64,000 nucleotides of DNA from an uncultured Chloroflexia bacterium (GTDB taxonomy: Bacteria; Chloroflexota; Limnocylindria; Limnocylindrales; CSP1-4), in NCBI GenBank assembly GCA_963748625.1, contig CAVVJT010000007.1, positions 192,001 through 256,000 of the forward strand, written 5' to 3'. The position numbers and the translations under genes were made by a program. How positions within the stretch are numbered: the first letter of the stretch is position 1; every line of letters begins with the position of its first letter. Under the pieces are notes generated by a model, which saw only the letters and a program-made list of their open reading frames with translations, did not search any database and was not told the DNA's origin. Positions 19,783 to 37,506 of the stretch are shown here, one piece after another.

Positions 19783-19853
19783 GTCCCTTCGGACGCCCCC
19801 GACCAGGGCCGGTCGGGCTGCCGGCAGCGGGTGTGGCCTGCCGCGAGCCGGTC

Positions 19854-20583: not shown

Positions 20584-20665
20584 GGCCGGCCTCACCTGTC
20601 GAACTGCGGGAGATGGAGTGCCGCGAGTTGGATGATATCGGGACCCGATCGAGCGACGTAGCCTC

Positions 20666-20693
20666 TTGACGGCATGTCGGATTGTCCTACAAT
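20666..20693 (+). promoter_or_regulatory. Promoter with embedded GntR-type operator, copy 3 (divergent from gntR)
   Basis: TTGACG-GCATGTCGGATTGTCC-TACAAT; contains the near-perfect palindrome TGTCGGA-TTG-TCCTACA. Confidence 0.85.
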
Positions 20694-20740
20694 GAAACCC
20701 GGTTGGCAAGACCTGCCGGCTGGCGCCCCTGCGCGTCGTC

Positions 20741-21518
20741 GTGAGCGAGAGGATCCGCGTGATGGTGAGGCTGCAGTTCTTCGGCACCGCGGGCTACCGG
20801 ATCGTGACCGACTCAGGCGCGACGGTCCTGATCGACCCCTACCTCGACCAGAACGCGGTCTGCCCGATCAAGGCCGCGGACCTCGACTCCGCCGACGTGC
20901 TCCTGATCACCCACAACGCGTATGACCACTTCGGCGATGCGCCGGCCATCATCAAGCGGCTCCGCCCGCTCGTCGTCTGCGCGAAGGACGTCGCCCACAC
21001 GCTGACCAGCGTCCACGATGTGGACCCGGAGCTGATCCGGGTCACGATCTGGGGCCTCCAGATGGAGGTTGCCGGCGTCCGGATCCTGCCGCTCCCGAGC
21101 GCGCACTGGTCCTTCGGCGTCACCCCCACCGGGGAGCTGCTCTCGGGCCCGGCGGTCGGATACCTCGTCGATGCCGGGCCGGGCGTCCGCATCTACCACC
21201 CCGGCGATTCGGCCATCACGACGGACATGCGGCTGTGGGGTGAGCTCTACCGGCCCACCGTGGGCCTGATGGTCATGGCCCTGCCTGAGCTGTCGCTCCC
21301 GCACATGGAGTGCTACCGCTCAGGGCGAGACCACGCCGTACGAGGCCCTCCTGGCCAGCCAGTGGCTGGGCCTCGAGCACGTCGTCACCAGCCACTATCA
21401 AAGCCCGGATCACCCCGATGTCCAGGCCTTCCTGCGACTCGCGGAGGCGACGGCTGAGGCCAAGGGCTATGCGCCCAGGATCAGCGTCCTGCGGGCCGGT
21501 GATGAGATCGATCTCTAG
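20741..21518 (+). CDS. Metallo-beta-lactamase-fold hydrolase (UPF0173/UlaG-like), frameshift near 21325
   Basis: LIDPY, ITHNAYDH, SAH and IYHPGDS; the shifted frame continues ETTPYEA...VTSHY to a TAG at 21516-21518. Confidence 0.8.
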
Positions 21519-21563: not shown

Positions 21564-22640
21564 ATGTCGCGAAGAGTCACGCTGGAGGAGTCCTGCGTCG
21601 CTGTCGAGCAGTTCGAGGGCGAGACCGCCGAGCCGCTCCAGGCTCCCGACGGGATGGCGGTCGAGGAGCAGCTCGAGATCTACCGGAAGATGCGCCTCAT
21701 CCGGGAGTTCGACGGCAGCGTCAAGGGGCTCTGGAAGCAGGACTTCATCTACGGGCTCGCGCACTCCTACGTGAGCGCGGAGGCCATCGGCGTCGGCGCC
21801 TGTGCGGCTCTCAGGCCGGATGACCTGATCACGTCGACCCACCGGGGGCACGGCCACACGATCGCCAAGGGTGGCGATCCGCGGCGGATGATGGCCGAGC
21901 TCATGGGCAAGGCGGCCGGCTACTGCGGTGGCAAGGGCGGCTCGATGCACATCGCGGCCGTGGACCTGGGCATGCTGGGCGCGACCGGGATCGTCGGCAG
22001 CGCGATGCCCATCGCGGTCGGGGCCGCGCTCACGGCCAAGACGCTCCAGCGCGACAACGTGACCGTCTGCTTCCACGGCGATGGGTCCACCAACCAGGGC
22101 GTCTGGCACGAGTCCATCAACCTCGCCGCAGTGTGGAACCTGCCGGTGATCTTCGTGTGCGAGAACAACCAGTGGGCGATCAGCCTGCCCTATGACCAGG
22201 CGTCCAAGAACCCGAGGGTGTCCGATCGGGCGGCGGGCTACGGCATCCCCGGCGTGACCGTCGACGGGTTCAACCCGTTCGCGGTCTACAACGCCGTGCG
22301 GATCGCGGCCGAGCGAGCCCGGGCGGGCGAGGGACCCACCCTCATCGAGGCCCGGTTCTACCGCTACATCGGCCACTTCGTCGCCGACGACGAGCGCTAC
22401 CGCGATACCAACTGCAACGTCCTGTGGGAGCGGTTCGACCCGCTCACCCGCATGGAGCGGTACCTCGTCGACTCCGGGACGGCGACCGAGGCGTGGATCG
22501 CGGAGGCGACCGCCGAGGCCCAGGCGATCGTTGCGGACGCGATCGAGTTCGCGAAGGCGGCGCCGGCGCCGGAGCCGGACACCCTGTACACGGGGATGTA
22601 CTCGCCGGAGTTCATGGAAGCCCAGGGGATCAAGCTGTGA
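21564..22640 (+). CDS. TPP-dependent dehydrogenase E1 alpha subunit (acetoin/pyruvate dehydrogenase-like)
   Basis: STHRGHGH, GKGGSMH, TPP motif GDG...ENNQW and RYIGH. The start codon is uncertain. Confidence 0.92.
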   Translation: MSRRVTLEESCVAVEQFEGETAEPLQAPDGMAVEEQLEIYRKMRLIREFDGSVKGLWKQDFIYGLAHSYVSAEAIGVGACAALRPDDLITSTHRGHGHTIAKGGDPRRMMAELMGKAAGYCGGKGGSMHIAAVDLGMLGATGIVGSAMPIAVGAALTAKTLQRDNVTVCFHGDGSTNQGVWHESINLAAVWNLPVIFVCENNQWAISLPYDQASKNPRVSDRAAGYGIPGVTVDGFNPFAVYNAVRIAAERARAGEGPTLIEARFYRYIGHFVADDERYRDTNCNVLWERFDPLTRMERYLVDSGTATEAWIAEATAEAQAIVADAIEFAKAAPAPEPDTLYTGMYSPEFMEAQGIKL

Positions 22641-23659
22641 CGGACATCCAGACGAGCGGCGCGGCCGCCGCCCCCGCCCTGGCGAAGACGCTGACCATCA
22701 AGCAGGCGATCAACGAGACGCTGTTCGAGGAGATGCGCCGCGATCCCACGGTCGTGATCCTCGGCTGCGATGTCGGCATCCGCGGCAACCCGTTCGGCGT
22801 GACCAAGGGACTCTACGAGGAGTTTGGAGCGGGCCGCGTGCTCGACACGCCGATCTCGGAGGCGGCCATCATCGGCAGCAGCCTCGGCGCCGCCGCCACC
22901 GGGCTGCGGCCGATCGCCGAGATCCTGTTCTCCGACTGGATCACCATCGGCATGGATCAGCTGGTCAACCAGGTGGCCAAGATCCGGTACATGTTCGGGG
23001 GTGCGATCAGCGTCCCGCTCGTGATCCGGGCCCCGGTAGGCGCCGGCGGCGGCCAGGCAGCCCAGCACTCGCAGTCGTTCGAGTCGTGGTTCAGCCACGT
23101 GCCGGGTCTCCAGGTCGTGATGCCGATCACGCCGTACGACGTCAAGGGCCTCCTCAAGACCTCGCTCCGGTCGAACGACCCGGTCCTCTTCTTCGAGCAC
23201 AAGCGCGGCTACGAGATCAAGGGCGAGGTGCCGCTGGAGGACTACACGATCCCGTTCGGCCAGGCGGCCATCGCCCGCACCGGCGCCGACGTGACGGTCG
23301 TCGCCATCTCGATCATGCGTCACAAGGCCATGGCGGCCGCGGCGGAACTGGCCGAGCAGGGCATCGAGTGCGAGGTCATCGACCCGCGGACGATCTACCC
23401 GTTCGACTACGACACGGTGCTTGCCTCGCTCGAGAAGACACATCGCCTCGTGGTCGTCCACGAATCCAATCGCCGGAGCGGCATCGGCGGCGAGATCGTG
23501 TCCCAGGTGGCGGAACGGGCGTTCCGGACGCTCCATGCCCCGCCGGTCATCGTCGCCGGGCTTGATGTTCCCATGCCCTACAACCGCACCCTCGAGTCCC
23601 TGGTCATCCCCAACGAGGAGCGGATCAAGCAGGCCGTTCTCACGGTGATGGCCGGGTAG
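22637..23659 (+). CDS. TPP-dependent dehydrogenase E1 beta subunit
   Basis: DTPISE, GLRPIAEI, QHSQS, DPVLFFEHK and EVIDPRT; the GTG overlaps the alpha stop. Confidence 0.93.
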   Translation: MTDIQTSGAAAAPALAKTLTIKQAINETLFEEMRRDPTVVILGCDVGIRGNPFGVTKGLYEEFGAGRVLDTPISEAAIIGSSLGAAATGLRPIAEILFSDWITIGMDQLVNQVAKIRYMFGGAISVPLVIRAPVGAGGGQAAQHSQSFESWFSHVPGLQVVMPITPYDVKGLLKTSLRSNDPVLFFEHKRGYEIKGEVPLEDYTIPFGQAAIARTGADVTVVAISIMRHKAMAAAAELAEQGIECEVIDPRTIYPFDYDTVLASLEKTHRLVVVHESNRRSGIGGEIVSQVAERAFRTLHAPPVIVAGLDVPMPYNRTLESLVIPNEERIKQAVLTVMAG

Positions 23660-23682
23660 CCGGCAGCGGCAAGGAGGAAGCG

Positions 23683-23961
23683 GTGGCAACCCTGTTCGCG
23701 ATGCCGAAGCTCGGCATGAACATGGAGGAGGGCGTCCTCGTCGGGTGGCTCGTGGCCGAGGGGTCCGAGGTCCGGACGGGCCAGCCCATCCTCGAGATCG
23801 AGACCGACAAGACGACGGTCGAGCTCGAGGCGACGGCAGACGGCGTGCTCGCCCGGATCGTCCGGGCCGCGGGCGACACCGTCCCGATCAACGGCGTCCT
23901 CGCGGTGATCCTCGCCCCCGGCGAGGCGCTGCCTGACGACATCCCGGACTCGGCCGTATGA
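23683..23961 (+). CDS. Stand-alone lipoyl-carrier domain protein
   Basis: MPKLG..MEEG and EIETDKTT (lipoyl Lys); 92 aa. Confidence 0.88.
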   Translation: MATLFAMPKLGMNMEEGVLVGWLVAEGSEVRTGQPILEIETDKTTVELEATADGVLARIVRAAGDTVPINGVLAVILAPGEALPDDIPDSAV

Positions 23962-24006
23962 CGGTTGTGCGTCGTGTCTCACCCCAGCCAGTGAACTGAG
24001 GCGAAG

Positions 24007-26227
24007 ATGACCTTGGACTCCGCGCCGGCGGTGGAGATCGCGGAAGGCCGCCGATCCGCCCTCGACTACCCCAACATCCGCGCCTGCGAGGTGCCGTCCA
24101 GCGAGCTTGCCGCCACGCCCAAGCGCACGCTGGCCCTCGGCCTGTTCATGATCCACACGATCCGCCTGTTCGAGCGATGGCTCCTTGACCATGCCGAGCT
24201 TGTCCACGGCCCACTGCACTCGAGCATCGGGCAGGAAGCGGTCGCGGTGGGCACGGCGCTGGCGCTGGAGCCGACGGATCGGATCACCTCGACGCATCGG
24301 GCCCATCACGACGTGCTGGCGAAGCTGATCGCCCACGCCGCACCCGCGGACTTCGACCCGGCGACGGCGACCGAGGTTCCGGCTGCGGTCCATGAGGCCG
24401 TCCTGCGGACGTTCGCCGAGATCCTCGGGCTCGAGCAGGGCCTCTGCGGCGGGCGGGGCGGATCGATGCACCTCGCCGACGTGGACGGCGGCGTCATGAC
24501 AAGCGCGATCGTGGGCGGCGGGATTCCCGTCTCCGCGGGTCAGGCCCTGGCGGCGAAGCTGCGCGGAAATGGGGGCGTCGCCCTCGCCTCATTCGGCGAC
24601 GGTGCGACCTCGATCGGGGCCTTCCACGAGGCGGCCGTGCTCGCCCGGGCCTGGAAGCTGCCAATGATCTTCCTGCTCGAGAACAACCAGTACTCGGTGG
24701 CGACGACCCTGCGCGAGACCGCCGGCTTCGAGGAGCTCGCGATCCGCTCCAGCGGCTACGACATGCCGGCGCTCATCGTGGACGGCATGGATCCGATCGC
24801 GGTACTGACAGCGATGACCGCGGCGCGCGCACGGGCCGTCCGCGAGGGCCCCGTGTTCGTCGAGGCGGTGACCTACCGCTACTACCACCAGAACGGGCCG
24901 CTGCCCGGCAGTGCGTTCAAGTACCGGACGAAGGACGAGGAGCGGCACTGGGCCACGCTCGACCCTGTCCAGGTCTTTCCCGCGGAAGCTGCTCGATGCC
25001 GGTCTGCTCGGCGCGGCCGAGGCCGACCGTGTCGAGGAGCTCGCCAGGTCGCTCGTCGCCGGCTGTGCGTCCGCGGTCACCGAGGAGACCGCCGACGGCC
25101 TGCGCATCCCGCCGTCGCTCTACCCATCGACAGCCGACGCGGGCCGGGGCCTGCTGGGTCCCGGCGTCACCGACGTGCCGCCCGACCTCCTCGACACGAC
25201 CCCCGTCGCCGGGGGCGCGGAGATCACCTACGGCGCGGCGGTCTCGGGCGTGATCGCTCGCTGGCTGGAGCGGGACCCCGAGGCGTTCGTCCTCGGGGAG
25301 GAGGTCGGCCACCTGGGCGGCGGCGTCATGGGGTTCACCAAGGGCGCCCTCGCAACGGCCCCGGAGCGGGTCCTCAGCACGCCCATCTGCGAGAACGGGT
25401 TCACGGGTGCCGCCTTCGGGGCGGCCCTCTCCGGGATGCACCCGATCGTGGAGTTCATGTACCCCGACTTCACGCTCGAAGCGGCCGACCAGCTGTTCAA
25501 CCACATCCCGAAGGCCCGCTACATGTTCGGCGGGATCCACCAGATCCCGCTCGTCGTGCGGACGCAGATCAGCCGTGGACGCGGCTACGGGCCCCAGCAC
25601 GGGTGCGACCCGGCGGCGCTGTTCGCGGTCTACCCCGGGTGGAGGGTCGCATCGCCGTCGACTGCGGCCGAGTATGTCGGGCTGTTCAACGCGGCCATGC
25701 TCAGCCGCGACCCTGTCCTGGTCATCGACGACCACCGCCTGACCAAGACCACGGCGGCGCTCCCGGCCGGGGGCATGGACCACGTCATCCCGCCGGGCAC
25801 GGCCCGCCTCGTGCGCGCTGGCCGCGATGCGACCGTCGTCGCCTGGGGCTACGGGCTCCAGCGGGTCCTGGCCGTGGCAGAGCGCCTGGACGCTGAGGGG
25901 ATCTCGGTCGAGGTCATCGACCCCCGCTGGCTGGACCGGGCCAGCTTCGACCGGGCGACGGTGCTGGCATCCGTTGCACGCACCGGGGGGCTGGTGATCG
26001 TCGAGGATGCCCAGCGCAGCCTCTCGATGGGCAGCCAGATCCTGGACTACCTGCTGCCGGACCTGTTCGAGCACCTGCGGACGGCGCCCATCCGGGTGAC
26101 CGGCGAGGACGTGTATTCACCGGTCTCGAAGCCGCTCGAGACGTTCGTCCACCTGCGCGACGAGAACGTCGAGGCGGGCATCCGGACGGTGACAACGGCG
26201 GCGACCGCCGGGAGGGCACGACGATGA
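24007..26227 (+). CDS. Fused E1 alpha/beta TPP-dependent dehydrogenase, frameshift near 24982
   Basis: Alpha part: HSSIGQE, GRGGSMH, GDG...ENNQY. Beta part in the second frame: STPICE, EFMYPDF, GPQH, EVIDPRWL. Confidence 0.85.
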
Positions 26228-26469
26228 GCGATCCGACGCGGCTCCGGATGCCCAACCTCGGGGCCGAGGCGACTGGCGGCACGATCGTCGCCTGGCTCCG
26301 GGCCGTCGGCGACGAGGTCGTCGCGGGCGAGGTGGTCGCCGAGATCGAGACCGAGAAGGCGACCGTCGAGCTCGAGGCGCCGGTCGCCGGGCGCATCTCC
26401 GAGATCACGCAGCCTGTCGGAGCGGAGGTCGCGGTAGGCGAAACGCTCGCGCTCATCGAGCCAGGGTGA
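26224..26469 (+). CDS. Stand-alone lipoyl-carrier domain protein
   Basis: MPNLG and EIETEKAT; 81 aa; translationally coupled to the fused E1. Confidence 0.88.
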   Translation: MSDPTRLRMPNLGAEATGGTIVAWLRAVGDEVVAGEVVAEIETEKATVELEAPVAGRISEITQPVGAEVAVGETLALIEPG

Positions 26470-26569
26470 CCAAGGCGGTCGAGCCGCTGCCACGCATCGC
26501 ATCCATCGCCGGGCCGAGGCCCGCGCGCAACTCCAGCAGCAGCACCAGACAGAAGAGGAGTACACGACG

Positions 26570-27193
26570 ATGGCTGATCTGACGGCACTGGGCAAGGCAA
26601 TCGAGGCCGGCGACCGAGCGACCGCTGTGGCGCTCACGAACGAGGCGCTCGAGACTGGCGTGCCGGCCCAGGAGATCCTCGACGCGATGACCGACGCGAT
26701 GGCGGTGACCGGCGTTCGGTTCCAGGCCAATGAGATCTTCGTGCCCGAGATGCTGATCGCCGCGCGCGCCATGAAGGAGGCGATGGCGGTCCTCGAGCCC
26801 GTGCTGGCAGGCGCCGGCATCAAGCCCGAGGTCACGGCCGTGCTCGGCACCGTGAAGGGCGACCTCCACGACATCGGCAAGAACCTCGTGGGCATGATGT
26901 GGAAGGGCGCGAACATCGCGGTGATCGACCTGGGCACGAACGTCCCCCCGGAGCGCTTCGGCGAGGCCGCCAAGGAGCACGGCGCCAAGCTGGTCGGGAT
27001 CTCCGCCCTGCTGACCACGACGATGGTCGGCATGAAGGACGCGGTGGACGCCATCCGGGCCCAGCAGCCCGACGCGAAGATCATCGTCGGCGGCGCGCCC
27101 GTCACCCCGGAGTTCGCCATGGAGATCGGGGCGGACGGATACGCGCCCGATGCCGGGGCTGCCGTGGATGTCGCGCACCAGGTACTGGCGTAG
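26570..27193 (+). CDS. Corrinoid (cobalamin-binding) methyl-carrier protein, MtaC/MttC-like
   Basis: Cap domain (EIFVPEML), then GTVKGDLHDIGKNLV (DxHxxG), SALLTTT and IIVGGAP. Confidence 0.95.
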   Translation: MADLTALGKAIEAGDRATAVALTNEALETGVPAQEILDAMTDAMAVTGVRFQANEIFVPEMLIAARAMKEAMAVLEPVLAGAGIKPEVTAVLGTVKGDLHDIGKNLVGMMWKGANIAVIDLGTNVPPERFGEAAKEHGAKLVGISALLTTTMVGMKDAVDAIRAQQPDAKIIVGGAPVTPEFAMEIGADGYAPDAGAAVDVAHQVLA

Positions 27194-27255
27194 TCGAAGC
27201 AGCCCGACCCAGCTGGCGCCCGAGGGTCACGCACCCTCGGGCTGGAAGGACGTCC

Positions 27256-28389
27256 ATGAATTCCAAGCAACGCGTCATCGCCGCGCTCGAGCACCGCGAG
27301 CCGGACCGGGTTCCGGTCGGCGAGATGGCCATCGACTTCGAGCTCACCCAGTTCGCGCTCGGTCGGCCGACCCTGTACCGCTCCAAGTGGAACGAGTACA
27401 TGGCCCTGTGGAACGGCCGACGCGACGAGATCGTTGCGAGCTACGGTCGCGACATCGTCGATCTCGTGCGCCATTACGACCTGGACTACCTCTCGATCCC
27501 CCTTGCGCCCGCGAGGCAGGCCACCTATGAGCCGCCGGAGTTCACCGGCGAGTACCAGTGGAAGGACAAGAACGGCCGCACCTGGCAGTACTCGCCGGAG
27601 TCCGAGGGTCACGCCATGTGCATCGATCCGATCGACCTCACGGTCGACGACATCGTGATGCCTCCGGACCCTGCACCGGTCGACTGGTCGCGGCTGGAGC
27701 ACTTCGAGTACATCGTCAAGGAGCTCGGGCAGACGCACTTCATCATGGGCCGGGTGCCCGCGGGCCTGTTCCCGTGGCAGGAGACGCTCGGCAGCATCGA
27801 CGGCTTCCTGATCAAGATGTACGACGATCCCGAGTTCGTCGATCGGGCGGTCGAGGCCCAGACGCGCGAGGCGATCGCGTACGCGAAGGCGATGATCGAG
27901 ATCGGCTGCGACGCCGTCTCGCCCGACGGTGACGTGTGCGACAACCGCGGACCCACGATGGGTCCCGATCTCTTCCGCCGGTTCTGCCTTCCCTCGGTCG
28001 GGCGCCTGGCGGATGCCATCCACGCCGCGGGCGGCTGGGATGTCATGCACAGCGACGGGTACCTCTGGCCGATCCTCGACGACCTCGTGACGGCCGGCAT
28101 CGATGGCTGGCAGGGCATCCAGCCGCGCATCGGCATGGACATGAAGCTCCTCAAGGAGCAGTTCGGCGACCGGTTGTGCCTGTTCGGCGGCGTCGACATC
28201 GACACACTCGTGCTCGGCAGCCCGGATGACGTCGCGGAGCAGGTCGACTACGCGATCACCCACGCGGCCGCGGGCGGCGGGCTCGTCATCGGATCAGGCA
28301 ACACCATCATGCCCGGCGTCCGACCCGAGAACTTCCAGGCCATGCTGGACCGGACGCGCCGGAGCGGCGCCTACCCGGCTCACGGCTGA
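27256..28389 (+). CDS. Uroporphyrinogen decarboxylase-fold protein (putative corrinoid methyltransferase)
   Basis: MNSKQRV..ALEHREPDRVP, MHSDG, LKEQFGDRLCLFGGVD and GGGLVIGSGN. Confidence 0.85.
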   Translation: MNSKQRVIAALEHREPDRVPVGEMAIDFELTQFALGRPTLYRSKWNEYMALWNGRRDEIVASYGRDIVDLVRHYDLDYLSIPLAPARQATYEPPEFTGEYQWKDKNGRTWQYSPESEGHAMCIDPIDLTVDDIVMPPDPAPVDWSRLEHFEYIVKELGQTHFIMGRVPAGLFPWQETLGSIDGFLIKMYDDPEFVDRAVEAQTREAIAYAKAMIEIGCDAVSPDGDVCDNRGPTMGPDLFRRFCLPSVGRLADAIHAAGGWDVMHSDGYLWPILDDLVTAGIDGWQGIQPRIGMDMKLLKEQFGDRLCLFGGVDIDTLVLGSPDDVAEQVDYAITHAAAGGGLVIGSGNTIMPGVRPENFQAMLDRTRRSGAYPAHG

Positions 28390-28436
28390 CCGACCGCCAC
28401 CCACCTCCGACGGGACCTGTAGAGGGAGCGAGACTG

Positions 28437-29672
28437 ATGAACGAACGCGAGAGGATGCTCGCCTGTCTGCGCGGCGAGCCGACGGACCAGCTGCCCTGGG
28501 CGCCTCGCATGGACCTGTGGTCCATCGCCCAGCAGGCTCGCGGGACCATGCCCGAGCGATTCAAGGGCCTGAACACGGCGCAGGTCGCGGACGAGCTCGG
28601 TGTGGGGTGCCACGCCGTCCGGGCGGACTGGACGATCGTCCCGCAGTTGGAGCGCGACCCCCGCGACTTCATGTGGCGCGCGTTCGGGTTCGAGACGTGC
28701 TGGGACTTCCCGTTCAAGCTGGAGATCAACGACCTCAAGGTCGACTTCAAGTACGAGGCCGGCGACGGATCCGGCAAGTACTGGACGACGATCCACACCG
28801 CCGCCGGGCCGCTCGAGACGTACATGGAGTACGAGAACTCCATGGCCAAGAACGGGATCACGGCGCCGGAGGTGAAGCTGTACCCGCTTCCCGACCCGAC
28901 GAACTGGGAGAAGGTCGCGCAGGTGTACGACGCCTTCGAGGTCGTGCCCACCCCGGACGCGTACCGCGCCTTCAAGGCCAGGATCGGTGACCGCGGCCTC
29001 GCGCTCGCGCAGGGCCCCAACTCCGCCTCGCCGATGCACTCGATCCTGCACATGCTCACGCCGATGGAGACGTTCTTCTACGCCTACATGGACGTGCCGG
29101 ACGAGCTCCACAAGCTCGCCGAGCGGATCACGCCCTTCTTCGAGCGGATCCTGGACGTCATGTGCGAGTGCGACGCGGAGGTCGTCTGGTGGGGTGCCAA
29201 CTACGACCAGGCCACCACGTGGCCGCACTTCTTCGCCACTGAGATCGTCGACTACGTCCGCATGGTCGGCGACCGCCTCCGCGCCTCCGGCAAGTACATG
29301 GCCAGCCACTGCGACGGCGAGAACGACAAGCTCCTGGAGTACATGCCGACCGCCCGGTTCGACATCGCCGAATCGGTGCCCACCGTGCCGATGGTGAAGC
29401 GCTCGCTCAAGGAGCTCCGCGAAGGGTTCGGCGAGCCCACCACCATCTGGGGCGGCCTGCCGGCGACCGCCTTCATGCCCGGCCCGATGTCCGACGAGTC
29501 GTTCGAGGCCCACCTCGACACCGTGTTCGGAGAGCTGGGATCCGGCAAGCGGACCATCCTGGGCGTCTCGGACAACGTGCCCGTGGACTGCACCATCGAG
29601 CGGCTGGACCGGGTGACCGAGCGGGTCAAGGCGTTCGGCCCCGTGAACCCGGCTCCGGCCGGGCAGCTCTAG
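28437..29672 (+). CDS. Uroporphyrinogen decarboxylase-fold protein (putative corrinoid methyltransferase)
   Basis: MNERERMLA.LRGEPTD, SHCDGE, IWGGLP and LGVSDNVP. Confidence 0.8.
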   Translation: MNERERMLACLRGEPTDQLPWAPRMDLWSIAQQARGTMPERFKGLNTAQVADELGVGCHAVRADWTIVPQLERDPRDFMWRAFGFETCWDFPFKLEINDLKVDFKYEAGDGSGKYWTTIHTAAGPLETYMEYENSMAKNGITAPEVKLYPLPDPTNWEKVAQVYDAFEVVPTPDAYRAFKARIGDRGLALAQGPNSASPMHSILHMLTPMETFFYAYMDVPDELHKLAERITPFFERILDVMCECDAEVVWWGANYDQATTWPHFFATEIVDYVRMVGDRLRASGKYMASHCDGENDKLLEYMPTARFDIAESVPTVPMVKRSLKELREGFGEPTTIWGGLPATAFMPGPMSDESFEAHLDTVFGELGSGKRTILGVSDNVPVDCTIERLDRVTERVKAFGPVNPAPAGQL

Positions 29673-29737
29673 GACGAGACTCGCACGGGTGGCTTTGGCG
29701 GACTCCGCCCGAGCCACCCGCGACCCCGAGAGGAGCA

Positions 29738-30139
29738 ATGACCATGGAGACAGCACAGCGGTCCGCCGTTCCGGTTGTCAGGCTGCCGGGCCGTGACATC
29801 CAGCGGATCATCGGCAAGGACGCCTTCCTTGCCAGCGGCCGCATGACCGTGGGGACCGCGCACTACTCGGACGGCGCGGGCCCGATGGAACCCCACCAGC
29901 ACGCCGAGGAGTGCATCGTGGTCCTGGAGGCGCGGGGGGCGCGGGTCCGGTATGGGCCCACTCCCGACGACCTGCCCACGGTGATCAACCTCGAGGCCGG
30001 CCTGGTGCTCCACATCCCGGAGCTCGAGTGGCACGTCTTCGAGTGGGATGCGGGTGGCCATGCCGACTGCCTCGTCATCTACGGCCAGGTCGACAACATC
30101 CGGCCGGAGGACATCCAGCAGGCGCAGGCTGCCGGCTGA
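29738..30139 (+). CDS. Cupin domain protein
   Basis: PHQHAEE...EWH metal-binding pattern. Confidence 0.75.
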   Translation: MTMETAQRSAVPVVRLPGRDIQRIIGKDAFLASGRMTVGTAHYSDGAGPMEPHQHAEECIVVLEARGARVRYGPTPDDLPTVINLEAGLVLHIPELEWHVFEWDAGGHADCLVIYGQVDNIRPEDIQQAQAAG

Positions 30140-30189
30140 CGGGAAGCCGCGAGCCCCGGCAGGGCACCACGAGGAAGAAGGCATTCAAC

Positions 30190-31110
30190 ATGGCATCCGA
30201 GCAGCTGCCCACGGTCGGGTTCATCGGTCTCGGGATCATGGGCAAGCCGATGGTCCGCAACCTGTTGCGGGCGGGCTACGCCGTCACCGTTCACGATGTC
30301 GTCGCCGCGCCCGTTGACGAGCTTGTCGCCGATGGAGCCAGCAGCGCGGGAACGGCGCGCGAGGTGGCTGCGTCAACCGACCTGCTGATCACCATGCTGC
30401 CCGATTCGCCGGACGTCGAGGCCGTCTACCTCGGTGTCGACGGTGCGCTCGCGGCGGCCCGGCCCGGCTGGCTGGCCATCGACATGAGCTCCATCTCACC
30501 GCGGGTCGCCCGAGAGATGGCGGATCGCGCCGCTGCAGCTGGCGCCGAGATGCTTGACGCACCGGTCAGCGGCGGCGACAAGGGCGCGATCGCGGGCACC
30601 CTCTCGATCATGGTCGGCGGCTCGGACGCCGCCTTCGAGCGAGCCCAACCGGTCCTCGGGGCCATGGGCAAGACGATCGTCCATGTCGGGCCGTCGGGTG
30701 CCGGCCAGGTGGCCAAGGTGTGCAACCAGGTCGTCGTCGCGGTCGTCATCGAGGCGGTCTCGGAGGCGCTGGTCCTCGGCGCGAAGGCGGGGGTCGATCC
30801 AAACCGGATCGCGGACGTGCTCCAGGGCGGACTCGCGGCCACCAAGGTCCTCGAGATGCGGCGGTCCAACATCATGGATGGCAACTTCGCCCCGGGATTC
30901 CGTGTTCGCCTCCACCTCAAGGACCTCAAGAACGCGCTCGACCTGGCCCGGGAGGCGGGCGTCGTCCTGCCGGCCGCGGCGGGGGTTGAGCAGCTCATGC
31001 AGCGGATGCCGATCGCCGGCCGCGGCGACTACGACCACTCAGGCCTCATCACGGTCCTCGAGGACCTGGCCGGAGTCCGCGTCTGCGACGTCGCTGCCTC
31101 GCCTGAATGA
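30190..31110 (+). CDS. garR: 2-hydroxy-3-oxopropionate reductase-like beta-hydroxyacid dehydrogenase
   Basis: GFIGLGIMG, MLPDSPDV, DAPVSGG, catalytic KVCNQ and F.PGFRVRLHLKDL. Confidence 0.8.
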   Translation: MASEQLPTVGFIGLGIMGKPMVRNLLRAGYAVTVHDVVAAPVDELVADGASSAGTAREVAASTDLLITMLPDSPDVEAVYLGVDGALAAARPGWLAIDMSSISPRVAREMADRAAAAGAEMLDAPVSGGDKGAIAGTLSIMVGGSDAAFERAQPVLGAMGKTIVHVGPSGAGQVAKVCNQVVVAVVIEAVSEALVLGAKAGVDPNRIADVLQGGLAATKVLEMRRSNIMDGNFAPGFRVRLHLKDLKNALDLAREAGVVLPAAAGVEQLMQRMPIAGRGDYDHSGLITVLEDLAGVRVCDVAASPE

Positions 31111-31150
31111 CCGGGTGGACCAGAGAGCCAGGACACCCAGAGGGACCCAC

Positions 31151-32191
31151 ATGACCGACTACTTCAGCCGCCTCGTCTCGGAAACCCCATCCAGGGTCTG
31201 GGTCAACAACCCGACCGAAGAGGAGATGGGACTCGCGCTTGCCGCCGGAGCCGTCGGTGCGACGACGAACCCGGCGTATGGCGGAGGTCTCCTCCGGCGC
31301 TCGCCGGGCGAGGTCATCCCCGTCGTGGACGCATGCCTGTCCGCCTCCGATGACGACCGGGTGGTCGCCGATCTCGTCCAGCAGCGCCTCGTCGCCCGGA
31401 TCACCGCCCGCTTCCGGCCGCTCTTCGAGTCATCGGGCGGCACGGCCGGCTTCGTCTCGATCCAGGGGTCGCCGGAGACCGACGTGGACGGGGAGATCAT
31501 CTGGGAGGAGGCCGAGGCCGGCCACGCGATCGCTCCGAACGCGACGCCCAAGATCCCCGCCACCCTGCCCGGGTTCGTCGCCATGGAGCGGGTTGTCGAG
31601 CACGGCTGGCCGATCATCGTCACCGAGGTGTTCTCGCTCGACCAGGTTGAGGCCGCGTGCGAGCTCTATCTCCGCGTGACGGCCCGGACGGGCGTGCGCA
31701 GCCCGTTCTTCATGAGCCCCATCACCGGCATCCTGGGCGACCACCTCAAGAAGCTGGCGAAGGCCCAAGGCCTTGACGTGCCGGTCCGGGCCATGGATCT
31801 CGCCGGCATCGGCCTGTCGCGGCGCTGCGCCGCCCTGGTCGCCGAGCGCAACTACCCGGTGACGCTCCTGTTCGGTGGTGCCCGCATTCCGGAGGATCTC
31901 ACCGGGCTCATCGGCGCCGCGCACCATGCCACCATCAACTGGTCGACGTTCGCCGAGATCCGGGCGGCGAATCCGCCGATCGAGCGCACGATCACCGAGC
32001 CGTTCGACCCAGAGCTCGAGCGGCTGCTGCTCGACACCTTCCCCGATGTCTGGAAGGCCTGGGAGCTCGGCAGGCTCGCGCCCGAGGAGTTCGAGGCGTT
32101 CGGGCCGGTCCAGCACTTCCGGGACAACTTCCTCGCCGGCTGGAACGGCGTGCTCGCGATGATTGCCGAGCGCCGGGTGGCGGCCGGCTAG
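31151..32191 (+). CDS. Transaldolase family protein with a non-canonical active site
   Basis: TTNP and Schiff-base KIPAT present; WVNN, VSIQG and IVTEVFS replace the usual motifs. Confidence 0.82.
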   Translation: MTDYFSRLVSETPSRVWVNNPTEEEMGLALAAGAVGATTNPAYGGGLLRRSPGEVIPVVDACLSASDDDRVVADLVQQRLVARITARFRPLFESSGGTAGFVSIQGSPETDVDGEIIWEEAEAGHAIAPNATPKIPATLPGFVAMERVVEHGWPIIVTEVFSLDQVEAACELYLRVTARTGVRSPFFMSPITGILGDHLKKLAKAQGLDVPVRAMDLAGIGLSRRCAALVAERNYPVTLLFGGARIPEDLTGLIGAAHHATINWSTFAEIRAANPPIERTITEPFDPELERLLLDTFPDVWKAWELGRLAPEEFEAFGPVQHFRDNFLAGWNGVLAMIAERRVAAG

Positions 32192-32200
32192 ACAGGATCG

Positions 32201-32231
32201 CGTAACCCCCGGGTCATGCCCGGGGGTTACG
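32201..32231. terminator. Hairpin between convergent genes
   Basis: CGTAACCCCCGGG-TCATG-CCCGGGGGTTACG, a 13-bp perfect stem. Confidence 0.7.
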
Positions 32232-33081
32232 GAGCCGCGACGAGCCGCTGGCGCTGGCGCCCCAGGCCGGTGACCCCGAGCTCGACCACATCGCCCGGCC
32301 GCAGGAACGGCTTGTCCGGGTGGCCCATCGCCACGCCGGGGGGCGTGCCCGTGTCGATGATGTCGCCTGGCTCGAGCACGATGTACTGGCTCAGATGGCG
32401 GATGATCTGGGCGACCCCGAAGACCAGCGTCCCGGTGTTGCCGGTCTGACGCCGCACCCCGTTGACGTCGGTCCACAGGTCGAGGTTGGCGGGGTCGGAC
32501 ACCTCGTCCGGCGTCACGAGCCACGGACCGGCCGGGTTGAAGGTCTCGCACGACTTGCCCTTGGTCCACTGGGTGCCACGCTCGAGCTGGAACTCCCGCT
32601 CGGAGACGTCGTTGCAGACCATGTACCCGGCAACGGCCGCCTGCGCCTCCTCGTCCGTGTCGAGATAGCGGCAGGTCTGGCCGATCACGACGCCAAGCTC
32701 CACCTCCCAGTCGGTCTTCAGCGATCCGCGCGGAATCCGGACATCGTCATACGGTCCCGAGATCGCGTTGGACGACTTGATGAAGAAGATCGGCTCGGGC
32801 GGGAGGGCCAGGCCAGCCTCCGCCGCATGGTCGGCGTAGTTGAGGCCGATGCAGAAGATGTTGCCCGGGCGCGCGACGGGAGCTCCGAGTCGGATCCCCT
32901 CGAGGTCGACCACCGGACCGGCGCCCGCGGCGACGATCGGCCGCAGCGCATCGATCCCACCGCCGGCGAAGAAGGCCCGGTCGAAGTCCCTGACGTGATC
33001 GCCCACGTCGAGTGCGTGCTGGTCGTCGACGAGCACCCCGGGGCGTTCCGCACCTGCGGGCCCGAAGCGGACGAGCCTCAT
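32227..33081 (-). CDS. Fumarylacetoacetate hydrolase family protein
   Basis: CIGLNYADH, DWEVELG, NDVSER, KGKS and TGTPPGV. Confidence 0.92.
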   Translation of the reverse strand: MRLVRFGPAGAERPGVLVDDQHALDVGDHVRDFDRAFFAGGGIDALRPIVAAGAGPVVDLEGIRLGAPVARPGNIFCIGLNYADHAAEAGLALPPEPIFFIKSSNAISGPYDDVRIPRGSLKTDWEVELGVVIGQTCRYLDTDEEAQAAVAGYMVCNDVSEREFQLERGTQWTKGKSCETFNPAGPWLVTPDEVSDPANLDLWTDVNGVRRQTGNTGTLVFGVAQIIRHLSQYIVLEPGDIIDTGTPPGVAMGHPDKPFLRPGDVVELGVTGLGRQRQRLVAAP

Positions 33082-33123
33082 GAGTGGCCTCCTCGTGTCA
33101 CGGCTGACATGGTCGAGCCACGG

Positions 33124-33645
33124 TCACCCGTGGTCGGGGCGCGTCGCGGCGTCCCCCTGGATGGGCCCGGTCGCCGGCTTGGCGCCGCGCCGGTAGACAA
33201 GAACGCTGCGCTCGTACTCGATGACGGTCTCGTTGCGCTGGTTGTAGCCTCGGGTGCGCACCCGGACGAGACCCTGTGTCGGCCGGCTCTTCGACGGCCG
33301 GGTCTCGAGGACTTCCGATTCGGCGTAGATCGTGTCGCCTGCGAAGACCGGGTTGGGCAGCCGGACGGCATCCCAGCCCAGGTTGGCAACGGCGTTCTGG
33401 CTCACGTCGGCCACGGAGAGCCCGGTCACGATCGCCAGGGTCAGCGTGCTCACCACGAGCGGGCGTCCGAACTCGGTCCGTGCCGCATAGTCCGCGTTGT
33501 AGTGGACCGGGTGGGGGTTGTTGGTCAGCAGCGTGAACCAGGTGTTGTCCGTCTCCGTGATGGTCCTGCCGTACGGGTGACGGTAGAGATCCCCCACCAC
33601 GAAGTCCTCGAAGTAGCGGCCATCCCAGCCGGGCACCACGGGCAT
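33124..33645 (-). CDS. MaoC family (hot-dog) acyl-CoA hydratase/dehydratase
   Basis: GRYFEDF.VG, RTITETDN..F...T.N.HPVH and PVFAGDT. Confidence 0.9.
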   Translation of the reverse strand: MPVVPGWDGRYFEDFVVGDLYRHPYGRTITETDNTWFTLLTNNPHPVHYNADYAARTEFGRPLVVSTLTLAIVTGLSVADVSQNAVANLGWDAVRLPNPVFAGDTIYAESEVLETRPSKSRPTQGLVRVRTRGYNQRNETVIEYERSVLVYRRGAKPATGPIQGDAATRPDHG

Positions 33646-33661
33646 TGCGTGCCTCCTCTCC

Positions 33662-34930
33662 TCAGCCGGCGGCCGACCGCGCGTCATCGAGCTCGTCCGC
33701 GCTGATCACACCGAGCGCCGCCGCACGTGACGGGTCGAACCGGCCGGCCGCGACGGCCCTCCGCAGCAGCGCCCGGGCGTGGCGGTCCGTCGCGCGGTCC
33801 GCCATCGTGCCGCCGATCATGGTGGCGCCCTTCCCTTCCTCCTCGACGGCGGCCCGGTACACCCCGAGCGCCGCGACGGCCTCCTCCAGGGCAGGAGCGC
33901 CGGTCGGGCCATCGAACGCCAGCAGGGTGGCGAACAGCTGCGCCGGATGCCCGACCCACTTGCCGGTCATGCCCAGGTCGCGCGCGCGGAGGGCGTCACG
34001 GTGGCAGAGCGCCATGCGCTCGAGGAACCGCTCCCGGTTGGCCTCCGCATCCAGGGACGGGTCCGCGACGGGATAGGCAAGCGTCATGCCATCCAGCGAT
34101 GGGACGCCCACCGCGCCCGCGACGTTGACGATCTCCGCACGCACCCAGTCGGCGATCGGGTGATCGATGGCAATCTCGGGCAGCCCGAGGTCCGCCGAGT
34201 AGTCCGCCAGCCCATAGACCAGTGAGGCGAGCCGCGGGGCGGCTCGGCGGGCGATCTCCGGGAGCTGCGCCGCACACCAGCCCGACTCCACGAGGAACCC
34301 GACCCGGATCCGACGTACCGGCAGCGACAGCGCATCCTCGACCTCGTCGAGGATGGCGTAGAGGACGTCGACCTCCTCCGGGTGGTCCACCTTGGGGAAG
34401 ATGATCCCGTCGACGGGATAGGTCGCCGGGTCGCCGGTCGAGGCGGCGAGAAGGACGGCGACCAGGTCGGCGCCCGCGCCGGCGAGACCGAAGCCTGGTG
34501 GTCGGTAGAAGCGGAGCGTGGTTCCCCACGCGGCGGTCCTGAGCGTGAGGCCGGCCACCCGCCGGGCTTCAGCCCGCGTGTCCTCGCGCTGGGCGGTCGC
34601 GTCCTCCCCGTCGAGCATCACCAGGGGTGCCCGGCGCGGCGCCGCGAGCAGCGCGGCGACCCGGTCCGTCGGCACGTCCAGGCGGTCAGCCAGCTCCGCG
34701 GGCTCGATCCGCCAGCGCTCCATGAGCCGCGCGGTGGCAGCCGTTCCACCCTCGACGGCCTTCCGGGCCATGGACTCGTTGTCGGCCGGTGTCGTGAAGT
34801 GCGCCTGCTGGCGCCAGTAGCGCAGCGGCAGGTCCGTGACCCGGTCCGCGACGGATGCCCTGAGAGCGGCGATCCGCGCCTCGGCGGATGTCGCGAGCGC
34901 CGTCTCCATGTCCCGGTCCGCAGGGCTCAC
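33662..34930 (-). CDS. CitE/malyl-CoA lyase-like (HpcH/HpaI aldolase-citrate lyase family) protein
   Basis: LDGEDA, FPKV, LVES, GLADYSADLG, GMTGKWVGHPAQ and MADRA. Confidence 0.82.
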   Translation of the reverse strand: MSPADRDMETALATSAEARIAALRASVADRVTDLPLRYWRQQAHFTTPADNESMARKAVEGGTAATARLMERWRIEPAELADRLDVPTDRVAALLAAPRRAPLVMLDGEDATAQREDTRAEARRVAGLTLRTAAWGTTLRFYRPPGFGLAGAGADLVAVLLAASTGDPATYPVDGIIFPKVDHPEEVDVLYAILDEVEDALSLPVRRIRVGFLVESGWCAAQLPEIARRAAPRLASLVYGLADYSADLGLPEIAIDHPIADWVRAEIVNVAGAVGVPSLDGMTLAYPVADPSLDAEANRERFLERMALCHRDALRARDLGMTGKWVGHPAQLFATLLAFDGPTGAPALEEAVAALGVYRAAVEEEGKGATMIGGTMADRATDRHARALLRRAVAAGRFDPSRAAALGVISADELDDARSAAG

Positions 34931-36399
34931 TCTGCAGCGTCCTCGAACAGGCCGCGCACGAGCTCGATCGCGGTGTCCCGGATGATCCCGGCGACCGCCG
35001 GATCGAACGGCGCCGGATGGCCGTACCCGCGATGGGAGACTGCGGGCTCATACCCCCCGAACGGGTATTCCTCGGGCGTCGCCACGTACCCGAGAACGCC
35101 CTGGCAGTAGCCGGCAAAGATGGTGGTCGCGGCGGGCGACGCGGCCCGGACGGCAGCCCCGATCTCGCTGAAGATCTCGCCGGGTGCGCCGACAATGGCG
35201 CAGTCACCCACGCGCGCCGCCCAGATCTCGCCGTCGAGCGCCTCGTCCAGCGTACCCGCCCGTGCCCCGGCGAGCGTCTGCTGGAGCCAGGCGATGTGAT
35301 ACGCGATCGGGTTGGTGACCTCCCGACCGGCGCCTTCCGCCCTCCTGCCGGCCAGGCCTGCCTGCCGTTCTGCCAGCTCGGCCGCGAGCGCCTCGGCCGA
35401 GGGAGTCGCCAGGAGCGGAAGCCGGACGATGCGCCTTACGCTGGCCAGCGGCTGGGACATCTGGTCCTCGGCCACCCGGCGCCGGTACAGGCTGATGGGC
35501 GTGACCGACCCGTAGGCGATGTGGTCGATCGTGGAACGCCAGGGCTCGACGTCGGCGACGGCATGGGCGGCTTCAAGGGCCAGCCGATGGCCCATCGGCT
35601 CGTCGTCCGCCGCGTCCTCGCCGAACGCCTCGAGCGGCAGCACGTTCCCCGCCGCACCCTGTAGGAACAGGGTCGTTCCTCCGCCCAGGGGCCCATCCAG
35701 CCGCTCCCGCAGGGGACCGACGAAGTCGGATCCCACCAGGGGAACCTCTGGTCCGACGGTGACCGGGTGGCACCCGAAGCCAACCAGCGTGGCGATCGGC
35801 CGAGACCGTCGGCGCTCAGGCCTCGCGTCGATGCGCACGGTGGGCACCTCGTCGTCGAGGAATCCGTCCGGGTTCCAGCCCAGGATCGTGCGCCCATCCG
35901 GCGTCCGCTCGCGGCGGTTGACGGCGATGCCGGGGGCCCGTCCGGTGGCACCCGCGACGCGCGCCTCGACCAGTCGGTCGGCCGCCTGGACGGCTGCGGA
36001 GGCATACAGGGCGGGTACCTGGTCCCACCACCCACGCTCGACGTCGGTCCACCCGTCGAACTCCCCGCCCATCTTGATCGTGGCACCGGGCCAGGGCGCG
36101 GCGTGGGAGTGACTCGAGTTGAGGAGCACCTGCTCGGGCGTGCAGCCCACGGCCCGGGCCACCACGCCCCGGATCCGGTCCGCCATGGGCGTCGTGAGGC
36201 CCGTCACGTCGCCCGTGATGATGACCAGCGTCGTCGGGCCGGACTGCAGGACCACGGCCCGCGCCTGCAGTGGGGAGTGGACCCGGCGAGGCGCCGTCGC
36301 CCGCCGGACATAGCCGAGCACGTCGACCGGCAGGGGCGGGGTGATGTCGACGACCGCCGCGCCCGCGAGCATCGTGCCCCCGGGGGTGCCAGGGCTCAT
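34927..36399 (-). CDS. Neutral/alkaline ceramidase-like metallo-amidase
   Basis: VDITPP, SHSHAAP, CHP, QGAAGN, GEIF and GYV....YPFGGYE. Confidence 0.78.
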   Translation of the reverse strand: MSPGTPGGTMLAGAAVVDITPPLPVDVLGYVRRATAPRRVHSPLQARAVVLQSGPTTLVIITGDVTGLTTPMADRIRGVVARAVGCTPEQVLLNSSHSHAAPWPGATIKMGGEFDGWTDVERGWWDQVPALYASAAVQAADRLVEARVAGATGRAPGIAVNRRERTPDGRTILGWNPDGFLDDEVPTVRIDARPERRRSRPIATLVGFGCHPVTVGPEVPLVGSDFVGPLRERLDGPLGGGTTLFLQGAAGNVLPLEAFGEDAADDEPMGHRLALEAAHAVADVEPWRSTIDHIAYGSVTPISLYRRRVAEDQMSQPLASVRRIVRLPLLATPSAEALAAELAERQAGLAGRRAEGAGREVTNPIAYHIAWLQQTLAGARAGTLDEALDGEIWAARVGDCAIVGAPGEIFSEIGAAVRAASPAATTIFAGYCQGVLGYVATPEEYPFGGYEPAVSHRGYGHPAPFDPAVAGIIRDTAIELVRGLFEDAAE

Positions 36400-37127
36400 G
36401 CCAGCGGCGACCCTTCCGGCGGACCTGCCTCGAACAGTGAGGCCGGCTGCTCCAGGGAGGCCTTGAGGTCCGCGAGAAACCGGGCCGCTGCTGCGCCATC
36501 CACCGCCCGGTGATCCGCCGACAGCGTCGCGGTCATCACCCGTCGCACCGTGACGACGCCGTCGCGGACAACGGCTCGCTCGGCGGCGCGTGCCGTGGCC
36601 AGGATCGCCACCTGGGGCGGAACGACGATCGCGGTGAAGCTGTCGATCGGGAACATGCCGAGGTTGGACAGGGTGAACGTCGCGTCGGTCAGCTCGACCG
36701 CGCGCAGGCGCTTCGCGCGCGAGCGCGTCACAAGATCCCGCAGCGCGACAGCAGCCGCGTCGAGGTCGAGTCCGCCGCAGTCGAGCAGGGCGGGCGCGAT
36801 CAGGCCGTCAGGCAGGTCCACCGCGATCCCCACGTTGACCGCGTCGACGAGCTCGAGCACCTCGCCGTTCCAGACCGCATTGAAGGCCGGGTGGGCGCGG
36901 AGCGCGGCGGCGAGTGCGACCACGAGCGCTGCTGTGACGCTCACCCGGTCCTCGCGCTCGCGACCCTCGTTGTGCGCCGCGAGGGACGCGAGGAGCGCAT
37001 CCATCTCGATGTCGGCGGACTCGTAGAAGTGGGGCGCCTGCTGCTTGGACGCGGTCATGCGCTGCGCGATCGCCTTGCGCATGGAGGTGAAGACCACCGG
37101 GTGGCGGCCCGGTCCGGGTTCGCTCAT
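36396..37127 (-). CDS. 2-oxoacid dehydrogenase E2 acyltransferase, catalytic domain only
   Basis: MRKAIAQRM..SK..APHF, TFTLSNLG and catalytic DHRAVDG; no lipoyl or E3-binding domain. Confidence 0.88.
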   Translation of the reverse strand: MSEPGPGRHPVVFTSMRKAIAQRMTASKQQAPHFYESADIEMDALLASLAAHNEGREREDRVSVTAALVVALAAALRAHPAFNAVWNGEVLELVDAVNVGIAVDLPDGLIAPALLDCGGLDLDAAAVALRDLVTRSRAKRLRAVELTDATFTLSNLGMFPIDSFTAIVVPPQVAILATARAAERAVVRDGVVTVRRVMTATLSADHRAVDGAAAARFLADLKASLEQPASLFEAGPPEGSPLA

Positions 37128-37133
37128 CGTGCG

Positions 37134-37379
37134 CTACGCCCCGTCATCGAGGTACCCGATGATCTCGCCGACCGGCACGTCGGAGCCCGCATCGTGGACG
37201 ATCTCCACGAGGGTCCCGGCGTCGATGGCTTCCATGTCCACGGTCGCCTTGTCGGTCTCGACCTCGGCCAGGACATCGCCGCGGCGGACCGCGTCGCCAA
37301 CCTGCTTGGACCAGGAGGCGATGCGGCCGGACTCCATGTCGTAGCCGAGGTTCGCCATTGCAATCGGGATCCGTGCCAT
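37134..37379 (-). CDS. Stand-alone lipoyl-carrier domain protein
   Basis: MANLGYDMESG and EVETDKAT; start after GGGAGG. Confidence 0.88.
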   Translation of the reverse strand: MARIPIAMANLGYDMESGRIASWSKQVGDAVRRGDVLAEVETDKATVDMEAIDAGTLVEIVHDAGSDVPVGEIIGYLDDGA

Positions 37380-37442
37380 CGGGCCTCCCACTCGGTGTGC
37401 CGCTGAACCCGGTTCCCGGAGCCGCCGTGGGACCGGGCGGGC

Positions 37443-37456
37443 TGCAAAGGTTTCCA
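37443..37456. promoter_or_regulatory. LacI-type operator, copy 1
   Basis: TGCAAAGGTTTCCA, just downstream of a minus-strand -10 (TATCAT, 37460-37465). Confidence 0.6.
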
Positions 37457-37506
37457 GCCATGATAGCGGACAGGGCGCCGCTGGGCGACGCTCGTCGCGC
37501 ACCGAA

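Follow-up and report, generated by a model that had tools for sequence, protein, structure and literature searches.

A probable natural split of a pyruvate dehydrogenase-type E2 into free lipoyl carriers and a bare acyltransferase core

A 64,000-nucleotide stretch of DNA from an uncultured Chloroflexia bacterium (GenBank assembly GCA_963748625.1, contig CAVVJT010000007.1, positions 192,001 to 256,000; hereafter, the window) probably encodes a natural split form of a pyruvate dehydrogenase (PDH)-type E2, in which small free lipoyl carriers serve a bare catalytic acyltransferase that lacks a peripheral-subunit-binding domain (PSBD), an arrangement conserved in relatives. In a canonical E2, a lipoyl domain, a PSBD and a catalytic domain lie on one chain, and textbook substrate channelling relies on lipoyl domains that are covalently tethered to an E2 scaffold, which docks E1 and E3. 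In the window, the catalytic domain is a gene of its own, E2cat, and three stand-alone lipoyl proteins, lip1, lip2 and lip3, accompany it and two E1s.

The interest of the system comes mostly from small-genome relatives rather than from the number of genes in the window. A conserved natural lineage appears to have cut off the swinging arm and dropped the docking domain, in some genomes with no canonical E2 detected as a fallback. Such a natural split makes it testable how much of the flux depends on tethering and assembly and how much on E1, E2 and E3 simply recognising the lipoyl domain. It would also provide a minimal modular set of parts for engineering acyl-CoA formation, namely an E1, an 80-aa carrier and a 240-aa transferase. 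Lastly, it flags an annotation problem: public records label these genes merely 'lipoyl domain-containing protein' and '2-oxo acid dehydrogenase subunit E2'.

The acyltransferase core and its separate carriers

Because the window has a G+C content of ~70%, genes were called through G+C at third codon positions (GC3) and then scanned against Pfam and NCBIfam. The result upholds the parts list of an earlier sequence-only reading of this DNA, which had counted two E1s, three free lipoyl domains and a catalytic-only E2. E2cat (36396..37127, minus strand) is a dihydrolipoamide acyltransferase of 243 aa that matches PF00198 only (8.2e-70), with the match spanning residues 12-232 and the DHRAVDG motif at residues 205-211. 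Residues D205, H206, R207, D210 and G211 are invariant in 27 E2cat orthologues. The best solved relatives are the inner cores of human PDH E2p (e.g. 3b8k and 7uom, 1e-37); the alignment runs to the C-terminus of the 60-mer-forming PDH cores, beyond which E2cat has 12 extra residues. Ahead of E2cat and in the same frame lies lip3 (37131..37379, minus strand; 81 aa and a TAG stop; PF00364, 4.1e-18), with only the TAG and two codons between the two genes. Two other open reading frames (ORFs), 37124-37447 and 37144-37461, were rejected as lip3, being in the wrong frames.

By family, E2cat is an E2 catalytic protein and the carriers are lipoyl domains of the E2 type, while two features that define an E2 are absent. 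There is no lipoyl domain on the E2cat chain, which matches PF00198 alone and is separated from lip3 by a stop, and a PSBD scan (PF02817) found no match in the window, the two matches in the genome lying in its two canonical E2 genes. This agrees with the sequence-only reading, in which the E2 kept DHRxxDG and lacked both the lipoyl arm and the PSBD.

The two other carriers are lip1 (23683..23961, plus strand; 92 aa; PF00364, 8.7e-19) and lip2 (26224..26469, plus strand; 81 aa; PF00364, 2.3e-19), the start of the latter overlapping the stop of the second E1 gene, E1-2 (ATGA). All three proteins match PF00364 at 1e-18 to 1e-19 and contain the lipoyl-domain turn (E/D)-T-(D/E)-K-(A/T/S), as ETDK in lip1 and lip3 and as ETEK in lip2, with lipoylation predicted at its lysine; the lipoyl lysine, K44, is invariant in a 30-row alignment. 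Models of other lipoyl proteins gave partial fits. The glycine cleavage H protein profile (GCV_H, PF01597) matched part of lip2 (27 bits, profile positions 24-75 of 122) and neither lip1 nor lip3, and none of the three shows the full-length H-protein fold. The AcoC model NF011457 is covered by lip1-3 at positions 4-81 of 372, with 63-91 bits vs a 307-bit cut-off, too little for an AcoC assignment. NF008854, a model of E1 beta with an N-terminal lipoyl domain, is matched by lip1-3 at model positions 1-85. The orthologue of lip1 in a related genome, G051, lies within a 97-aa open frame. Of the three carriers, only lip1 bears a Pro/Asp/Glu-rich C-terminal tail of 12-14 residues (23920-23958), which is conserved in G051 (L134, 5500-5538) and could be what remains of a linker or else serve in docking.

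A scan of the window (C7:192001-256000) for lipoamide dehydrogenase (TIGR01350) gave no match. The claim that no E3 occurs here therefore holds, but it is not a peculiarity of the system, as the genome contains a single genuine lpd elsewhere (C4:409905-411317), which also answers the earlier suggestion that lpd be located. One E3 is common to all complexes of a cell, according to excerpts of a review (PMC6270654). The genome, 98% complete, has three PF00198 matches in all, and also encodes two LipA, two LplA/LipB-type matches, AceE and the two canonical E2 proteins with PSBD.

Conservation of the split in related genomes

Since the assembly carries frame breaks elsewhere, an artefact had to be excluded. 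In all nine related-genome loci (9/9), a stop codon closes the lipoyl gene just upstream of the E2 gene, and the two frames are the same or shifted by +1 or -1. Two observations that the sequence-only reading had named as counter-evidence did not turn up: the related loci lack a full-length E2, and their lipoyl ORFs are not fused to the neighbouring genes. A survey of public species-representative genomes returned 80 loci. The 23 closest to E2cat (52-67% identity) are split, each with a separate lipoyl ORF, and the gap between their lipoyl and catalytic matches measures 15-167 nt, which leaves no room for a linker and a PSBD. Ordinary fused genes with lipoyl, PSBD and catalytic domains make up 52 of the 80 (39-50% identity), with gaps of 235-559 nt. 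Five loci are ambiguous: L061 probably represents a canonical gene with a broken frame, L074 and L082 are found at the ends of contigs, and L083 and L102 have their lipoyl match ~1.3 kb upstream.

In a tree of 93 catalytic domains, from which L041 was omitted for its short match, all 33 split rows (33/33) fall into one clade (SH-aLRT 99), nested among fused Chloroflexota E2 proteins. Taken together, the related loci, the public loci and the single clade exclude an assembly error as the source of the split. One further split gene, in L135 (G162:C15, 3038-6022), forms a long branch of its own, apart from the main split clade; the locus comprises E1a, E1b, a lipoyl ORF and a catalytic ORF 35% identical to E2cat, with the domain matches of the last two ~60 nt apart, and may represent an independent loss of the PSBD.

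Protein collections hold many genes of the same form. The best 120 of 2836 matches to E2cat, searched at lengths of 133-426 aa, are proteins of 221-261 aa with PF00198 alone, and lip3 matches 456 proteins (44-142 aa searched), of which the best 120 are 80-101 aa long. Source names of the E2cat and lip3 matches and loci indicate Candidatus Limnocylindrales (Chloroflexota). Also in the split clade are metagenome-assembled genomes (MAGs) labelled Solirubrobacterales, Gaiellaceae and Acidimicrobiia, with a few labelled Acidobacteriota or Pseudomonadota.

The best evidence that the split pair can work as an E2 comes from a sister family with genomes of 1.0-1.4 Mb, five of which, 84-93% complete, were searched. 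In all five, the split E2 is the sole PF00198 match, with open frames of 230-243 aa. A PF00676-type E1 was found in none of the five, and an AceE-type E1 in all; the latter exceeds the cut-off in four and is divided between two contigs in the fifth. Lpd is likewise present in 5/5, over the cut-off in four. The PSBD profile matched in none of the five, while 10 of the 14 reference genomes used as a control were positive. In 151 genomes drawn from the order, a split E2 (E <= 1e-55) was found in 38 of the 42 members of the small-genome family vs 14 of the 108 members of the window's own family, where it is spread over 9 of 26 genera; by these counts, it looks like a core part of the former and an accessory one of the latter.

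We tentatively suggest, with somewhat less than even confidence, that the only PDH of the small-genome family consists of AceE, Lpd, a bare E2 core and a free lipoyl protein of 80 aa, with no PSBD in the genome and thus no tethered swinging arm and possibly no assembled complex. The organism of the window would use the same parts as plug-in modules, with several E1s, each with its own carrier, sharing one acyltransferase and one E3.

E1 genes, proposed cycle and alternative readings

The E1 genes lie on the plus strand in a module ordered MBL-E1a1-E1b1-lip1-E1ab2-lip2 (module B). Its first gene encodes a metallo-beta-lactamase-fold (MBL) protein (20741..21457; PF12706, 8.3e-15), which also precedes E1alpha-1 in G051. 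E1 alpha-1 (21564..22640; PF00676, 2.3e-87) is a predicted subunit of a thiamine diphosphate (ThDP)-dependent 2-oxoacid dehydrogenase E1, and its top NCBIfam match is the PDH E1 alpha model TIGR03182, at 331 bits below the 394-bit cut-off. E1 beta-1 (22637..23659; PF02779, 3.4e-41; PF02780, 4.3e-38) scores 350 bits with NF006667, above the cut-off of 321 bits, and has a single close orthologue (84%) among the 151 genomes of the order, in G051. E1-2 (24007..26227) is a fused alpha-beta E1, with PF00676 in its first part and PF02779 and PF02780 in its second, such that both E1s contain the E1_dh, transketolase pyrimidine-binding and C-terminal domains. The alpha part of E1-2 scores 185 bits with the PDH E1 alpha equivalog models (TIGR03182 / TIGR03181), short of the cut-off.

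One correction to the gene picture applies to E1-2, which is not a pair of intact genes. The alpha frame of E1-2 is open until 25896, while the coding signal moves by +1 at ~24975-24984, inside tctttcccgcgg. The orthologue in G051 is one open frame of 742 aa that reads ...LDPVRVFPKRLIDAG..., and that in another relative, G004, is one of 791 aa; E1-2 is therefore best described as a fused alpha-beta gene broken by one extra base. A contig of a ~90% identical relative (X3) spans 23105-25296 and shows no indel near 24975 among the 12 of 80 rows listed. No public sequencing run contains more than 0.12 of the sampled words, and the four runs compared represent contigs of relatives. Elsewhere in the same assembly (G000, contig C4: 402971-404504, 407798-408815 and 546080-548726), a canonical E2 is broken within its PSBD, and E1beta and AceE each run across two frames, through either many single-base assembly indels or decay of the canonical complexes. 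As the assembly is broken there too, the E1-2 shift may stem from an indel made in assembly at a run of TTT/CCC.

The order of module B is retained in G051 at 63-85% identity, where the operon E1a1-E1b1-lip1-E1ab2-lip2-E2cat' ends in a second catalytic-only E2 (241 aa, 56% identical to E2cat). There, two E1s, two carriers and one acyltransferase are encoded together. In G004 (L021, 1-8045), the order is corrinoid protein, E1ab2, lip2 and E2cat', followed by genes that, from their translations only, read as a pterin-binding methyltransferase, an MTHFR-like and a FolD-like protein. The paralogue that follows lip2 in these two genomes was not found in the window's genome, which has no fourth PF00198 match. 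Its place after lip2 is taken by a gene for a corrinoid (B12-binding) protein (26570..27193, plus strand; PF02310, 5.5e-27; PF02607, 5e-19), and the same junction of lip2 with the corrinoid gene occurs in the contigs of the ~90% identical relative. The idea that two E1s serve one acyltransferase is thus encoded outright in the G051 operon; in the window, where E2cat belongs to a different module (module A, on the minus strand) and module B's own paralogue was not found, we infer that both E1s would have to be fed to the module A E2cat in trans, or else that module B is disappearing. Nothing supports the further suggestion that acyl groups pass to a hydrolase. In two other loci, L036 (labelled Lysobacterales) and L044 (labelled Acidimicrobiia), one lip-E2cat pair is preceded by a tandem of two complete E1 alpha/beta pairs, which is another route for two E1s to share one carrier and one core.

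Taking enzyme roles from protein families, we propose the following cycle. A lipoate ligase or LipB, with LipA, would lipoylate the conserved lysine of each carrier. An E1 would decarboxylate its 2-oxo acid and reductively acylate the free carrier, which would then move in its acyl-dihydrolipoyl form to E2cat, the enzyme that would transfer the acyl group to CoA. Re-oxidation of the carrier would fall to the single Lpd of the genome, encoded outside the window. By analogy, the carrier would behave like the glycine cleavage H protein rather than like a tethered arm. The H protein resembles lip1-3 in being a small free carrier that visits separate enzymes and is re-oxidised by a shared Lpd; it differs in that lip1-3, at 81-92 aa, are lipoyl domains of the E2 type and would have ThDP E1s and a CAT-fold acyltransferase as partners in place of P and T proteins.

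Compared with canonical E2p, the split system has a homologous catalytic domain, keeps the DHRxxDG and lipoyl-lysine motifs and draws its E1 partners from the same families; unlike in E2p, the lipoyl domain is a separate gene product, and the PSBD and inter-domain linkers are missing. That a lipoyl domain can leave the E2 chain is also seen in NF008854, a 464-aa E1 beta with an N-terminal lipoyl domain. There, however, the domain is fused to a subunit, whereas here it is free and the E2 has none; systems of the NF008854 type additionally have a normal E2 that carries a lipoyl domain and a PSBD. In corynebacterial OdhA, an E2o catalytic domain with no lipoyl domain of its own is fused to E1o and borrows the lipoyl domain of a full-length, PSBD-bearing E2p. 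OdhA thus resembles E2cat as an acyltransferase domain that uses lipoyl domains supplied in trans, but the system described here would need no full-length donor, and in the small genomes none was found. Lipoyl domains on E3 are a further precedent for relocation. In all of these precedents, to our knowledge, the lipoyl domain stays fused to a subunit or a full-length E2 remains. In literature searches, with most subscription journals outside their coverage, we found no description of a free carrier and a PSBD-less core as the only E2, and no paper that joins Limnocylindr- bacteria with pyruvate dehydrogenase. One paper proposes only a GcvH-like redox carrier, LarG (PMC3543383).

Several points weigh against a natural split with freely moving carriers. 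Lipoylation, acyl transfer and free diffusion are all predicted from sequence, and the carriers could dock stably and non-covalently. The absence of a PSBD from the small genomes, themselves 84-93% complete, is judged by one profile of 36 positions. E1alpha-1 falls under the PDH equivalog cut-off, and module B may be decaying, with its E2cat paralogue not among the three PF00198 matches and E1-2 frame-shifted. Labels of split-clade MAGs outside Chloroflexota and Actinomycetota could be binning errors. Co-folding of three E2cat copies with lip3, each with a separate alignment, scored 0.00 and gave no answer, and weighs neither way.

The last-mentioned question, whether the parts assemble, underlies the alternative that survives best, which we regard as rather unlikely: the genes would be separate and the complex still classical, with lipoyl proteins, E1 and E3 docking on E2cat via interfaces other than a PSBD and the carrier not diffusing freely. 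It gains from the constant adjacency of lip and E2cat, which often overlap or abut and which suggests 1:1 co-synthesis, from the short Pro/acidic tail of lip1 kept in G051 and from the alignment of E2cat to the very end of 60-mer-forming cores. However, no docking element was detected, with no PSBD in the five small genomes or in the window, and carriers of 80-92 aa are essentially bare lipoyl domains.

It is also unlikely, in our estimate, that the E1-1/lip1/E1-2/lip2 module is a decaying remnant rather than a partner of the lip3-linked E2, having lost its own E2cat paralogue and with a real frameshift in E1-2. E2cat' directly follows lip2 in G051 and G004, where the window has the corrinoid gene and its genome only three PF00198 matches; E1-2 bears the +1 shift, and the X3 contigs also run from lip2 to the corrinoid gene. 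On the other hand, the remaining ORFs of module B are intact with a strong coding signal (GC3 0.86-0.95), the frame breaks in the canonical E2, E1beta and AceE on contig C4 indicate that the E1-2 shift may be an assembly indel, and E2cat lies only 10 kb away and could act in trans.

A role of the free lipoyl proteins as dithiol redox or one-carbon carriers, for instance for the corrinoid and methyltransferase genes, with E2cat in some other acyl transfer, appears very improbable. Corrinoid genes flank E1ab2-lip2 in the window's genome (G000) and in G004, methyl-transfer-type genes, read from translations only, follow in G004, and URO-D-family methyltransferases adjoin in the window; yet every carrier stands directly behind an E1 or before an E2 catalytic domain, the E2cat catalytic residues are all kept, and in the small genomes no E2 besides the pair was found, with AceE and Lpd in the same genome. 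A role in secondary metabolism (glycolyl-ACP or tetronate-type) was considered and dropped, as the window has no acyl carrier protein (ACP), polyketide synthase or nonribosomal peptide synthetase and the pair is the sole E2 in small genomes.

Hardly credible, finally, is that the split is a product of sequencing errors in a normal E2 or is undone in translation by read-through or frameshifting into a fused lip-E2cat: lip3 and E2cat do share a frame, with little more than the TAG between them in an assembly with frame breaks elsewhere, but the stop is kept in the nine related and 23 split public loci from many independent assemblies, no single recoding rule fits frames that vary between same, +1 and -1, and a read-through product would still lack ~100-150 residues of linker and PSBD, as the gaps of split and fused loci differ.

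Gene neighbourhood

On the minus strand, the gene order is lip3, E2cat, a ceramidase-like protein, an HpcH/CitE-type acyl-CoA lyase, a MaoC hydratase and an FAH-family protein. The first five constitute module A, an order that recurs in several Chloroflexota loci, with MaoC copies 76-83% identical occupying the same module in relatives. The lyase (33662..34930, minus strand) carries DUF6986 (PF22484, 3.5e-18; PF03328, 1.7e-13), and the MaoC-type enoyl-CoA hydratase (33124..33687, minus strand; PF19315, 2.5e-24; PF01575, 2e-20) is mesaconyl-CoA-hydratase-like. The order lip-E2cat-E1a-E1b occurs in eight loci (six labelled Actinomycetota, two otherwise), with MaoC upstream in five. In one locus, L049 (a MAG labelled Actinomycetes), the genes run LacI, HpcH lyase, family III CoA-transferase, MaoC, lip, E2cat, E1a, E1b and MmgE/PrpD.

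Clusters for itaconate and methylsuccinate breakdown comprise a CoA transferase, a MaoC-type hydratase, a citramalyl-CoA lyase and MmgE/PrpD and yield pyruvate and acetyl-CoA, as described in the abstract of PMC12290011. By its gene families, module A resembles such C5-dicarboxylate (itaconate-type) breakdown, which would yield pyruvate: the HpcH/CitE-type lyase and MaoC are common to both, and L049 adds the family III CoA-transferase and MmgE/PrpD. A dedicated PDH-type enzyme beside such a cluster would make metabolic sense. The resemblance stays at family level, as the module A lyase reaches 62 bits vs the 375-bit cut-off of RipC/Ccl (NF038242) and matches malyl-CoA and citramalyl-CoA lyase models weakly, far under their cut-offs. 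It differs further in that no CoA-transferase was seen in the annotated part of the window, and in that descriptions of the known itaconate clusters mention neither a dedicated split PDH nor a ceramidase-like gene.

The ceramidase-like protein (34927..36399, minus strand; 490 aa) has a weak match to PF04734 (32.9 bits) and, among solved structures, only 2zws at E 0.021. Several Chloroflexota loci have it next to lip-E2cat, and two loci with the labels Burkholderiales and Actinomycetes carry it ~3 kb off on the opposite strand. Conceivably, it is an amidase acting on an N-acyl substrate, even lipoyl-lysine.

Downstream of the corrinoid gene, the plus strand encodes two URO-D-family proteins, a cupin, an HIBADH-type reductase and a transaldolase-like protein. 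In all, the corrinoid protein and three URO-D-family methyltransferase-like genes surround the E1 and lip genes (26570-29672, 37611-38633), and the genome contains eight further corrinoid-protein paralogues, 34-64% identical. Linkage of the lipoyl system with methyl-transfer genes is thus repeated, in the window and in G004.

The region is framed by two sugar-type ABC transporter sets (13013-16990, 40063-43933), and by a GntR regulator that points away from the E1 operon, Amidohydro_2 proteins and a protein with a glyoxalase fold (17385-18275; 19708-20787; 38679-39155). It looks like a catabolic island. Towards the end of the window, three overlapping ORFs on the plus strand (60466-62537) lie in different frames, all with coding-type GC3, and may constitute another gene broken by frame shifts.

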